Positions 23,451 through 62,013 of a DNA stretch of 64,000 nt are shown piece after piece. This stretch comes from Eledone cirrhosa (lineage: Eukaryota). The DNA lies in NCBI GenBank assembly GCA_964016885.1, contig OZ024753.1:11656001-11720000 (forward strand), given 5' to 3'. Position numbers and translations under genes: made by a program. Position 1 is the stretch's first letter. Each line of letters starts with the position of its first letter. The notes below the pieces were generated by a model. The model was not told the DNA's origin. It saw only the letters and a list, made by a program, of their open reading frames with translations, and did no database searches.

Positions 23451-24494
23451 TTAGTGATGTTTTTGTTTCTAAATTTATGTAAATAAATAGGCTTAGATGG
23501 AACAAATATTTTGTCTGTATCGATAAGGGTGAATCTGTATATATGTGTCGCTCTATATGTATGTACTTGAATTTGACTGTGTGTATGTGTCTATGTGTGT
23601 AAGTGTGCGCATGTGTGTATCTCTGTGTGTGTGTGTGTGTATGTCAATGTGTTTTTGTGCATGTAATATTACGTGGAAGATACTAACATATATGTTAACT
23701 AAACATTAGAGAAAACTTCAAAACTAATAAAGAATAAATAAATATAAAACTTCACTTCGTCTGCAGAATTTTACAACAATGAATTTTTGTGACAGGTATT
23801 GATTGGAAATCGATTTGAGACAGACTAAAGGGGGAGATAATAAAGGAGAAGACAGGAGAGATTGAAAAGTAAAAATATAAATGAAGGAGAATATAAAGCT
23901 AGAAACTATGTAATGCGTTTAAAGATGGAGAGCATAGGAAAACCAGAAAATACTAAATATTTCAAGGTACGCACGATAATGTATATAATTCAAAGTCATA
24001 AAAATGGCGTAGGCATTACAATACAACTAGTGGAAGCATAATAATACCACTAATGATGTCACCGATGTGTGACGAAAGTATTTTGATCGAGTATATATAT
24101 ATATATATGTTTATATCTGTATTTTTAACCGTTGGTCAATCAATGATACACATTGATTGCCAAATAAATTAACTATCGAGACATAAAAGATAAACAAGCG
24201 AAAACCAACCGAAACCAAACAGCGACTGTATTCTGTTATTATTTCTGGCAATATTATAACAATATATATATATTGTTATACTTTGGGAGGGTCATGTTGC
24301 CAATAAGAAACAAATTCAGAAACGAAATATATATATATATATATATATATAAGTAGAAGGGGGTATTTAATTTGTTGGAAATCCTACACACATAAATATA
24401 AATGTTTATAAAGATTTAGAGCACTCAACAGCTACCTGGAGTAAATATTCAATAATATTAAATAAATGGAAACTATATTTATAAAACCATTATT

Positions 24495-24557
24495 TATTTT
24501 ATTATATATATTTCAAGGGTACCAAAACACTTTGGTACCCTCTCTTCAGATAAAATA
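24495..24557 (-). ncRNA. Type-I hammerhead ribozyme, family C, fully intact
   Basis: TATTTTAT-CTGAAGA-G-AGGGTACCAAA-gtgt-TTTGGTACCCT-T-GAAA-TATATA-TA-ATAAAATA: 8-bp stem I, 11-bp stem II, palindromic stem III. Confidence 0.88.
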
Positions 24558-24857
24558 CAAAATTTGTGTTTTATAAATTGAGACATACCCAGGAAAAATC
24601 ATAACTTATCAGTTGGATATTCTCTGGATATATATATATATATATATATATATATATATATATATATATGTATGTGTATGTGTTTGTGTCTGTGTGTGTG
24701 TATATATATGTATATATATATATGTATGTATGTTTGAATATAAAGTATATATATATATATGTGTGTGTGTGTGTATATATATAAGTATATATATGTATAT
24801 ATATATATATATATATATGTATGTATGTGTGAATATATGTGTACCAATGCATATACA

Positions 24858-24950
24858 TACGAGAGTCGGCTGAAAAGTTCATAGGCTGCCTATGAAGGAA
24901 TGATGCTAGGGGTATTAAATCTTGCATGCATTAATGTCGACTCTTCTTAA
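24858..24950. mobile_element. Probable mariner-like terminal fragment
   Basis: TA-CGAGAGTCGGCTGAAAAGTTC resembles a mariner TIR start. No second end was seen. Confidence 0.35.
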
Positions 24951-25371
24951 TAATTGTTTCTACTTTTGGCACAAGGCCAGCAATTATCCCAGTATATATT
25001 TAATACACACACCACACACACACACGCACACACACATATATATATATACACACACACCACATATATACACACACCACACACACACATATATATATTTATT
25101 AAAAAACAGCTCTACGGTTCTTATATATTTGATATATATTTATCCTTATCGAGCCCTCTTTGGATTTTAGTCTTCAAATTTATTATTATTACTATATATA
25201 TATATACACACCATATATACACACACACCACACACACAGATGCCCCCCTCAGCCACACAGACACTGAATTATATACCTGGCAATTAGAACACCAATGTAG
25301 TTTAAAATCAAGAAATATCTGGGTTTTTGCTTTTCATCTTAAATACTAAGATTTTCTATCAAGACAAATAT

Positions 25372-25756
25372 AATTATTTCTACTTTTGGCACAAGGCCAG
25401 CAATTATCCAGTGTATTACTGGTACTTTATTTTATCGACCCTGTAAGGATGAAAGGCAAAGTTAACCTCGGCGGGATTTGAACTGAGAATGGCAAGGGCC
25501 GTAACTCCATGCGTCAAAGCATGGCGTCGGAGCCTCTACCGATACTGCCAATCCACCATAATATAACTGTTTCAACTTTTGGCACAAGAGCAGCAACTAT
25601 CCCAGTGTATTACTGGTACTTTATTTTATCGACTCCGTAAGGATGAAAGGCAAAGTTAACCTCGGCGGGATTTGAATTCAGAATGACAAGGGCCGTAACT
25701 CCATGCGTCAAAGCATGGCGTCCGACCCTCTACCGATACTGCCAATCTACCGCCTC
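25372..25756 (-). mobile_element. Two tandem tRNA-derived SINE copies
   Basis: About 25372-25558 and 25563-25756, both matching the consensus. Confidence 0.9.
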
Positions 25757-58312: not shown

Positions 58313-58558
58313 TATAATAACTAGAGATTGATTAACATATAAATAAACATGAATAATCACAGGAGATAATTTTTACAAGTGTGTAACCACACATAGCTAG
58401 GTAGGTATCTAAATAAAGTTGACCAGAACTTCAAAAATAGATACCTTATAATATGATTAATCTTCCCTGTATATATTCCATTAAAGAAATATATTTCACC
58501 AATTAATCATGTGATTATTCATGTTTATTTATATGTTAATCAATCTCTAGTTATTATA
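58313..58558. mobile_element. Element with 48-bp inverted arms next to (TA)n
   Basis: 58313-58360 is the reverse complement of about 58510-58558. Confidence 0.7.
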
Positions 58559-58826
58559 AAATGCTCGGACCTCCTCGTTAGAGTCTTAGAGCTTATTTTG
58601 CGGCTGATATGGCGTATGTCTTTCTGGCATGACACCCATAATTTTGATTTAGATTAAATTCATTTGATTTATCTTAATTTTGGATATATATATATATATA
58701 TATATATATATATATATATATATAAATATATATATATATATAAATATATATAATAGTGTAGGTAGTACGGTGAAGTACTGGTGTTGGTACCAAATCAAAC
58801 ACTCTATGCCCAGGCAGAGTTTACAT

Positions 58827-59063
58827 AATAGAAATAAACGAGGAAATTTCGTTTACATATGAAAAGTATTTATTGCGTATCGAACTGTTACGCGCGTTTC
58901 GCAGAGGATTTGCTCAAGGACCCATAGCAGATATGGACCCGACCTGTTCCTCATACTAGTGATGCGACAAAAGATGTAAATCCTCTGCGAAACACGCGTA
59001 ACAAGTCGATACTCAATACATATTTTTCATATGTAAACGAAAGTTCCTCGTTTTTTTCTATTT
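58827..59063. mobile_element. Fold-back element with a hammerhead 3' half (GAAA-CGCGCG-TA)
   Basis: Arms of ~85 bp; the CTGANGA core is degenerate or absent. Confidence 0.65.
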
Positions 59064-60492
59064 TATATATATCCATTGTAAGCTGACCGTCGAGGTCTAT
59101 ATGTTTGATATGTCACGAACTTATACACCAAATATTGTATTTTATCTGAAGCAAGCATACTATAATTTTGTATCCTTGAAATATGTATAATAGAATAAAT
59201 ATGATTCCATTTATTACTATTGTTAATATTACGATTGTTGATATATAATAATCAAGAGAAAATTTAATTGTAGAGTGCTTCATATTTGTCATGAACATAG
59301 CTCTGTTGAATATTTATCAACAAACCATATAACTCATTGTTTATATATATATATATATATATATATATATATATATATATATATATATATATATAAATGG
59401 GGGGGGGGGGCTTCCAGATAGTTTTCTTCAAAGATTTCAGTCAAAATGCAGGGTTCAACTCTAGGCGATAGTGTGAGATAATTGCCTAAGGTGTCACGCA
59501 GTGGAAATAAGCCCTTATTGTGCCAAAGCATATATATATCGATATACACATAGTAGTGTGTGTGTGCATGTGTGCGCGTGTGCGTCTGCGCGTGTGCGTG
59601 TGCGTGTGTGTGTGTGTGTGTGTGCGTGTTTACTTTTCCACCAGGAACAGATGGTGTAGCATAATAATGTCACGTAATGTAAAAAATAAATTAATAAATG
59701 TGAGTAAAAGAACAAGAGTTGATATGATAGACGAAATCCTGCGTAAAATATGCATCAAAATTCTCTCACCATTCTTTCTCTGTATATAGATGAGGCAGGG
59801 GGGGGGAGCAAGAGAGAGCGAGAGCGAGCGAATGAGAGCGAGAAAGCGGGCGAATGAGAGCGAGAGAGCGGGAGAATGAGAGCAAGAGAGCGGGAGAATG
59901 AGAGCGAGAGAATGAGAGCGAGAGAGAGAGAGCGAATGAGAGCCTGAGGGCGAGAGAGTGAGAGGGCGAGAGGGCGAGCGAGAGAGAACGAGAGAGCGAG
60001 CGAAAGAGAGATTGAGTGGTATAGAAACATAGTCAATGGCAACATTGAGGACCGAGTAAGTTAGATCACAGATATAAAAGACAGCGAGAAGCGAAAACCA
60101 ACCAAACAGTGAGTGTGTTCTGTTATTAATTCTGGCAATATTACGCAAATATGACCCTCCCCAAATATAACAATATATATATATAGATATATATAAAAGA
60201 ATAGGACCCGACGGCTGAGCGCTAGCCGTTTCGACAGCTAGATCCGAATTTTCCCAATAACTTCCTTTAGTTATTGACGCACTGGTGTCAGATATCTTTA
60301 ATGCGTAGAAATATCTATGACCGCCAGCAGACAACTGATGAATGACAATTTTCTCCTGTTCGTACCTTCCTCTTATTTATAAGTACACCTTATCCAGCAA
60401 CAACACAGCCCCCGTTTCTTATTATATACATATATATATATATATAGACACAATATATTAACAAATGGAAACTATATTTATAAAACCATATT

Positions 60493-60558
60493 TATTTCAT
60501 TATACGTATTTCAAGGACACCAAATCAAATTATGGTGCGCTTTTCATCAGATAAAATA
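60493..60558 (-). ncRNA. Type-I hammerhead ribozyme, family C
   Basis: TATTTTAT-CTGATGA-[GCACCA/TGGTGT]-GAAA-TACGTA-TA-ATGAAATA; palindromic TACGTA. Confidence 0.75.
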
Positions 60559-62013
60559 TATTTATCAGTTTTATAAACAAATATTGACATACCCTTAAAA
60601 GAATGCGACCATGTCCTATATATATATATATATATATATATAGGAAAATGTATGACCCCGACGGCAGAGCTCAAGCCGTTTCGATGGCTATTTCTGGACT
60701 CTTTCCAAGCCTAAGTATTGAGTACTCTGGTGCGTTATGGTCTATCTGGTTCCTTACTACAACTCCACAACCCCTTCGCTATATATATACACACAGCCAT
60801 GCTTACATACATACGTACGTACATACATACATACATACACACGCACATACGTAAAAATGTATAGGCTCGTTCTAAATACAAATTCCGTGAACAGCTATTG
60901 AAAGAAGCTTCCATTATTCGATTGTATTGGAAGTAGTATGATGTTAAGTGCTCCTGGAAACAAAGTATTTGAAGGCAAATGAAGGGATAAAGTTGCGTGG
61001 TGTTAGTTATTCATGCTAGTAAGGGATGGGAGCACTTGGAAAGCATTTGTTTCATGTCAGCTCACCTCTGTATGACTTTGCTCGCTCTTTCTTTTATCTC
61101 CGGAACAGGTAGGGGAAGAAAGGTATATCAAAGCTCGTGTCCTTAAGTTCACACACACACACAGATCGCGTACATACATAAATATATACACCTTTACAAG
61201 CGCGCATACACACTCACAAATCTACGACCACACATTAACACACAAACAAACAGGCGCGCTCGTGTCAGCCAGACTTGGGTCGTGAGCAGCTGCTGACGTC
61301 ATTTTTAGTTAAATTTCTATGATACTATCCGTCGACATTAATTTTCGATCTGAAATTAGTTCACAGAAATAGTGCAACGGCGTTGATTTAGTGCTACTTC
61401 TGTATGTATGTATATATATATATATATATATGTACACATATATATAAACATACATACATACACATATATATATACACACATATATGCACACACACACACA
61501 CATATACACACCCATATACACACACACACACACATACATATATACACACACACATATATATATACACAGATACATATGCGTACCTACACACAGACATATA
61601 TATATATATATGTATATATATATATATATACACATACATATATACACACAGACATATATATATATTCACATACATATATATACACACATACATATATACA
61701 CACAGACATATATATATATATATATATATTCACATACATATATATACACACATACATATATACACACATACATACACACATACATATATACACACACATA
61801 TACACACACACACCTATATATGCCCACACCTATATATATATACACACGCACACACATATATACACATATATACACACACATATATACACACACATACATA
61901 CACACATATACACATATACATACACACATATACATACACACATATATACATACACACTCATAAATGCACACATACACTCATACATACACACACACACACA
62001 TATATATATATAT

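Follow-up and report, generated by a model that had tools for sequence, protein, structure and literature searches.

Two kinds of described elements come closest to the repeats considered here. According to the available parts of the respective papers, the minimal hammerhead ribozymes of Penelope-like retroelements have a consensus with an unpaired base after A9, a G10.1-C11.1 pair and a stem I of 4-5 bp, and covariation among such hammerheads within a genome was reported in 2014 (PMC4209133). Penelope-like insertions show inverted 5' copies, optional tails and (TA)n targets, and elements of the Hydra clade, which encode a reverse transcriptase and a GIY-YIG nuclease in their open reading frame (ORF), insert in (TA)n; in the accessible rows of the same source, counted by eye, the Hydra hammerheads have a U before GAA in 18 of 26 and a cut after UA in 12 of 26 (Craig et al. 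2021, PMC8557442). The second kind, the retrozymes without long terminal repeats (non-LTR), occur in animals including a mollusc as AT-rich repeats of small size that contain a type I hammerhead, as far as the consulted portion of that report goes (Cervera and de la Pena 2020, PMC7229834). Here we analyse family C, a group of hammerhead repeats in a 64,000-nucleotide stretch of the Eledone cirrhosa genome (assembly GCA_964016885.1, contig OZ024753.1, positions 11,656,001 to 11,720,000; hereafter the window). We put at about two in three the probability that family C repeats are the dead 3' ends of Penelope-like retroelements, probably of the Hydra clade, bounded by (TA)n and derived from a parent RNA that cut itself as a dimer.

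Family C shares with the Penelope minimal hammerheads a palindromic 15.2-16.2 region and the absence of a stable monomer stem III, but the G10.1-C11.1 pair and the unpaired base of that consensus are replaced by G·U, A-U or U×U, stem I has 8 bp plus an extension rather than 4-5 bp, and a C×C mismatch is kept at the fourth pair of stem II (PMC4209133, available text). The motifs listed there include no cephalopod, and two single examples have a mismatched fourth pair (C·A and U·U), which the available text passes without comment. With the Hydra clade, including Hydra-1_Obim, it has in common insertion in (TA)n, a 3'-proximal hammerhead and inverted 5' copies, as well as the U before GAA, a long palindromic stem III and the frequent UA cut site (PMC8557442, accessible parts); three family C motifs compared with the supplement of that paper, in the form available, gave no Hydra or Naiad hammerhead match. 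In the literature on hammerheads in octopus or other cephalopods, only Craig et al. and a squid genome, with 235 Rfam hammerhead hits, proved relevant, and the main text of a 2026 O. vulgaris repeat paper contains neither 'ribozyme' nor 'hammerhead'. Hammerheads and their within-genome covariation in Penelope-like repeats are thus already published and the main finding is mostly known and ordinary; the new point is the mismatch, for which no description was found in the part of the literature that was searched.

Structure and extent of the family C repeats

The five copies that an initial annotation of the window had placed at 24465, 29810, 54118, 60463 and 59125 are real and related (69-86% pairwise identity), and there is a sixth, more distant copy, absent from that annotation, with its core at 36390 on the minus strand. 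We refer to the copies by their core positions (Table 1); the ribozyme strand is minus in four of the five named copies and plus in the 59125 copy (core 59146). The units are 170-351 nt long, each between (TA)n runs that are present at the 3' end of all six and at the 5' end of five, some of them only 8-10 nt long; the 5' boundary of the 29810 unit is uncertain and it may extend farther upstream. Between the predicted cut site and the 3' (TA)n run there are 50-60 nt in some copies and about 150 nt in others; the units at 54103 and 60447 are of the short-tail form, those at 24352 and 59072 of the long-tail form. An entire unit folds as a single rod. The 36390 copy carries an inverted copy of its own 3' tail, with 36456-36501 identical to 36285-36330 and the inverted arm continuing to about 36596, so that the tail is longer in the inverted arm than in the direct one; this arrangement of an inverted arm with a longer tail is seen in one of the six family C copies and in the sister families D and E described below.

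The layout is that of a type I hammerhead, having stems I, II and III with its ends in stem I: an 8-bp stem I strand, CUGANGA, a long stem II, GAAA, a 6-nt palindrome, UA and the stem I partner. Stem II has at least 10 pairs, stem III is an 8-nt self-complementary segment, and stem I gains a further 10-bp extension. Pairing is complete in the 8 bp of stem I, 88% in stem II, and complete in the stem III palindrome when taken as a dimer. Family C carries a type I hammerhead motif for which cutting is predicted, in the first copy (24495; fold z-score -4.5) after 24503. The core elements CUGANGA, GAAA and UH occur in order and are intact in four of the six copies. The core is thus not fixed, as the annotation had it: A14 is G in the 54199 copy (GAGA) and A9 is C in the 59146 copy, and in the 29896 copy the basal pair of stem II is C×U. 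Likewise, the stem III palindrome had been said to switch between TATATA and TACGTA, which leaves out the TATGTA found in three of the six (TATATA in two, TACGTA in one); the path between them runs by single transitions through the G·U form. A flanking sequence described as shared is exact in three of the five named copies (starts at 24464, 54117 and 60463, two of the annotated positions being off by one) and has one change at 29810, but is largely lost in the 59125 copy (7 edits). In the four closest copies this flank forms the 3' arm of the extension to stem I, and that role may account for its lower variation (pairwise mismatch 9%, as compared to 18-30% in stem II).

A relaxed structure scan of the window returned eight sites as compared to 0-2 in each of 20 local dinucleotide shuffles; five are family C, two belong to a sister family and one is a probable chance match within a long interspersed nuclear element (LINE), while an extra base hid the 60550 copy from the scan. 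With the six copies as its input, a covariance model recovered all of them together with the two sister families, at 17980-18073 (E 0.002) and at 63275-63357 and 63446-63528 (E 0.04). None of the monomer minimum-energy folds forms stem III. The palindrome self-duplex is predicted at -2.2 to -6.5 kcal/mol, and the predicted price of holding the core open is 0.5-4.2 kcal/mol in five of the copies, as compared to 11.1 kcal/mol in the decayed one at 59125. By analogy, family C may work like the dimer hammerheads of Penelope type; a working hammerhead of that kind would probably fail as a monomer, and a negative monomer cleavage assay could then not refute the claim.

Covariation and a conserved mismatch in stem II

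Stem II had been annotated as covarying around the core, and all three of the complementary segment pairs quoted in support are present. Across the six copies, six of the ten stem II pairs have changed on both sides, a count reached by none of 500 shuffles, a control that ignores the relatedness of the copies; slid registers yield 0-2 such pairs. We therefore refer mainly to a neutral test, in which independent evolution was simulated on a tree built without stem II, with pair 4 omitted and total divergence matched. For the five named copies there are 2 broken cells compared with 10.7 expected (0 of 294 matched runs of 3000), and for all six there are 2 compared with 15.9 (0 of 1011 matched runs); in this larger set 6 pairs are two-sided (P 0.001), a single long branch accounting for four. 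When the sister families D and E are included, eight of the ten pairs change on both sides among nine motifs. Two points temper these figures: the five named copies alone have only 2 two-sided pairs (P 0.21), corresponding to about two events between subfamilies, and the stem structure was derived from the same sequences, so that the covariation figures lean upward. The annotated covariation thus stands as retention of pairing in the five copies and as paired change in the six, but not as significant covariation in the five by themselves. The hammerhead reading and structural constraint in the parent lineages of family C are supported, although constraint in ancestors is not the same as activity of the present copies, and overall the annotated observation is real and partly as described, with its interpretation as a whole partly supported.

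The initial annotation overlooked the fourth pair of stem II, which is C×C in five of the six family C copies and G-C only in the 24549 copy. The mismatch is present in eight of nine aligned motifs from three families (C, D and E), with the same copy, at 24495, as the exception; having been proposed as a master, that copy is instead an outlier. In the nine motifs pair 1 is G·U (4), A-U (3) or other (2). In position the C×C roughly matches the start of loop 2 of canonical hammerheads; we speculate that it could contact the stem I internal loop. The exact family C pattern has no match in metagenome contigs; a general C×C pattern finds 19 viral and 119 metagenome loci, none of which (0/138) passed a combined stem I and stem II filter or matched Hydra-type proteins. 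One-sided changes in stem II, read on the ribozyme strand, comprise seven G·U cells and no A·C cells, a pattern that suits an RNA fold on that strand better than correction of a DNA hairpin.

Family C in sequencing reads

Four of 20 sequencing runs (X1, X4, X5 and X18) were aligned to 54101-54281 at 80% likeness, a cut-off that biases toward conservation and so counts against the strength of what follows; the best run shared 34% of the words of the searched stretch, and the reads may come from related species. In X18, 26,826 of 12,467,656 reads aligned, about half from one stack, and X1 gave 4970 contigs; family C is clearly multi-copy. Summed contig depth was judged too unreliable for an estimate of copy number.

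Where the 54199 copy has GAGA at 54164, GAAA is found in 2994/3019 and 14833/14922 reads of X18 and in 99% or more of the depth in X1, X4 and X5, and GAGA is private to this copy. Stem II pairs 2 and 3, both G·U here, are mostly Watson-Crick elsewhere in the family. Among all such changes in X1, no G or C change of at least 4% falls at C3, G5, G8, G12 or either mismatch C; the variant calls of X4 and X18 refer to the rows listed. In the X18 loose-end consensus (12,983 reads) stem II reads A-U, G-C, G-C, C×C, A-U, U-A, G·U, C-G, C-G, A-U, the reads being unphased so that individual compensated pairs cannot be confirmed from them. An X4 contig at depth 105.6 reaches 748 nt beyond the motif on its upstream side, in keeping with a longer repeated parent. 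At 54167 an X1/X5 loose-end consensus from few contigs apparently misses some of the first core and of stem II, a hint of a deleted variant that still spread.

Sister families and the Hydra-type remnant

Both sister families contain inverted hammerhead pairs, as does the 58111 family, and both have an 8-nt palindromic stem III and the C×C at pair 4; family D has a U×U pair 1 and the loop TGATCA, and family E the loop TATGTA. Between 61990 and 63200 on the minus strand lies a 5'-truncated and frameshifted remnant of a Hydra-type Penelope-like element, with an inverted hairpin-bearing piece at its 5' end. Its ORF remnant has no Pfam match. Its relatives P0001-3 have the RWK, DKS/DKT and CxCx5C marks of Hydra elements. 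The remnant is followed by a short-stem hammerhead motif of its own at 62146 and by a copy of a tail motif at 62058. This motif, the palindrome GAGYRCTY, lies 59-117 nt past the cut site in six of 12 sites tested (background 0.03 per 140 nt), a lead only since it was chosen after looking. Families C, D, E and 58111 are represented among the six, as is the ORF-linked site; a further instance of the motif stands in the inverted arm of the 36390 copy.

Further inverted and hairpin-ended repeats occur in the window. An inverted repeat at 58015-58205 has a hammerhead-like motif of different build at 58111, and then the shared tail motif at 58225. Inverted-repeat families at 58827-59062, 39620-39891 and 45054-45162 have GAAA followed by a CGCGCG-type palindrome and UH, and are possibly minimal hammerheads with altered first cores. 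An abundant hairpin-ended family containing GAGTACTY lies by (TA)n at 18409-18596, 36865-37024, 37823-37956, 49381-49581, 60643-60766, 63073-63197 and 63728-63922, one copy abutting the Hydra-type ORF remnant.

Origin of family C

Taken together, the (TA)n targets, the inverted arm, the Hydra-like hammerhead features and the shared tail motif point to family C repeats as 3' ends of Penelope-like elements; membership of the Hydra clade in particular is probable. We propose that a parent element would be transcribed, and that two hammerheads, as in tandem terminal repeats, would pair through the palindrome and cut after UA. By analogy with the Penelope hammerheads (PMC4209133, available text), cutting would release RNA of the element, which could then be reverse transcribed into (TA)n. 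This step would be carried out by the reverse transcriptase and GIY-YIG nuclease of the element, starting at the RNA's 3' end and mostly halting just beyond the long hairpin, so that remnants of 170-350 nt would be left. Selection on the fold would act only in transposing lineages, each inserted copy decaying thereafter, and with this the separation of subfamilies by compensated pairs and the private lesions of single copies fit.

A number of observations weigh against this derivation. In five of the six copies the distance of the 5' end above the core is 66, 66, 74, 78 or 81 nt, a narrower spread than would be expected of random truncation. No ORF was found beside any family C copy, and searches for ORF remnants upstream of five copies gave no match below E 1 (a faint resemblance upstream of 29810 was dropped); a Hydra-type remnant lies elsewhere in the window, and its hammerhead, with a short stem II and no C×C, is of another family. 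The six tested sites without GAGYRCTY have early-ending tails. Hydra hammerheads have mostly 3-7 bp in stem II, and none of the 26 rows in the accessible part of PMC8557442 has the C×C. Finally, Rfam hammerhead models give no match at gathering score, and none is among the matches listed (150 of 188) at E up to 5 for 23000-64000, those listed being microRNA models on simple repeats; Rfam models do not cover such variants, and this miss therefore lowers only the claim to a curated family.

The clustered 5' ends and the lack of a family C ORF would also suit a stand-alone short element, of about 170-350 nt with a defined 5' end, that borrows Hydra-type enzymes. We regard this as clearly the less probable account. 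In its favour, the whole unit makes one rod, six copies are found in 64 kb, and read depth drops steeply above 54227. The fall in depth, however, also reflects divergence and the end of the aligned stretch, the 5' clustering would be explained by a reverse-transcription stop at the hairpin base, the 29810 unit may be longer, and the upstream X4 contig speaks against a short element. A more elaborate version, to which we give somewhat less credence still, makes family C a very abundant mini-element parasitising Hydra-clade Penelope enzymes. Its architecture would be one not described before, in which the C×C docks on the internal loop that the extended stem I forms, takes the place of the usual contact between loops and allows efficient cutting.

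A non-LTR retrozyme, in which monomers cut from tandem repeats become small circular RNAs and spread in that form, is improbable. Unit size and low G+C are within the 170-400 nt range given in the available text of PMC7229834, and the rod-like fold would suit it. Retrozymes, however, are described there as tandem arrays with canonical hammerheads and circular RNAs, whereas family C copies are single (none of the six in the window is in tandem), lack the G10.1-C11.1 pair, have 5' and 3' flanks that are not circular permutations of each other when aligned, and show the (TA)n targets and inverted arms that fit Penelope-like elements.

Equally improbable is an origin of the paired changes in DNA-level or reverse-transcription template switching between hairpin arms, with a motif perhaps never catalytic in the lineage: hairpin arms can homogenise without selection, only two two-sided events occur in the five named copies and inverted duplications are common in the window, but arm correction would erase the C×C that eight of nine motifs keep, one-sided changes on the ribozyme strand are G·U and never A·C, and the unpaired core letters are the most conserved.

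Other features of the window

The window is AT-rich animal DNA, rich in microsatellites, with a family resembling short interspersed nuclear elements (SINEs) and an intact-looking LINE; in its SINE and repeat content it resembles octopus DNA. The LINE (7305-11515, plus strand) has a 400-aa ORF1 with a weak Myb/SANT-like match and a 1045-aa endonuclease-reverse transcriptase ORF2; a 281-nt piece of its 3' end recurs at 28086-28366 with 100% identity, which suggests recent activity. The SINE-like family, of about 190 nt and partly in tandem, has many copies (13888-14399, 20655-21749, 25367-25755, 37968-38157, 39896-40152, 51916-52312 and 56248-56446), and ARAGORN reports one tRNA-like stretch, at 21648-21737. 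There is also a near-perfect (98.9%) 469-nt palindrome at 55023-55490 that ends in (TA)n, and a tandem repeat at 41341-43126 with 37 copies of a 48-nt unit and 93% matches.

Table 1. Family C units, hammerhead motifs and related features, in window coordinates.
Feature	Position	Strand	Basis
Sister family E, inverted hammerhead pair (cores 18057 minus, 18213 plus)	17984-18285		
Family C unit, long-tail, between (TA)n runs	24352-24627	-	boundaries, alignment
Tail motif GAGYRCTY, common to other hammerhead families and the Hydra-type remnant	24419-24426	-	
Stem I extension, 3' arm, part of the annotated flank; pairs with 24568-24577	24478-24487	-	
Predicted type I hammerhead, core 24549 intact, G-C at stem II pair 4, TATATA loop	24495-24557	-	
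Family C unit, 5' boundary uncertain	29798-29990	-	alignment, boundaries
Predicted hammerhead, core 29896 intact, C×U pair 1, C×C pair 4, TATGTA	29840-29904	-	
Sixth family C copy with inverted copy of own 3' tail at 5' end	36281-36596	-	
Predicted hammerhead, core 36390 intact, four more compensated stem II pairs, C×C pair 4	36333-36398	-	
Family C unit, short-tail, between (TA)n runs	54103-54280	-	boundaries
Predicted hammerhead, core 54199, private A14 to G at 54164 (GAGA), C×C pair 4	54147-54207	-	
Diverged family C unit, long-tail, tail motif at 59273	59072-59341	+	alignment
Decayed hammerhead, core 59146 (A9 to C), C×C pair 4, U×U pair 9	59138-59197	+	
Family C unit, short-tail, between (TA)n runs	60447-60616	-	boundaries
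Predicted hammerhead, core 60550 intact, extra A after core, C×C pair 4, only TACGTA copy	60493-60558	-	
Hydra-type Penelope-like ORF, frameshifted C-terminal remnant	62389-63077	-	tblastn, 41% to P0001
Sister family D, inverted hammerhead pair (cores 63337 minus, 63466 plus)	63230-63573		

Implications

What family C adds to the known Penelope-type hammerheads is a subtype with a long stem II, one position of which stays C×C in three families of a single window that are otherwise unrelated. In vitro the Penelope hammerheads published so far are poor at cutting, and they have no recognised tertiary contact; the conserved mismatch, opposite an internal loop in stem I, offers a concrete candidate for one. 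Family C, probably present in very many genomic copies, also lends itself to a covariation analysis of high statistical power.

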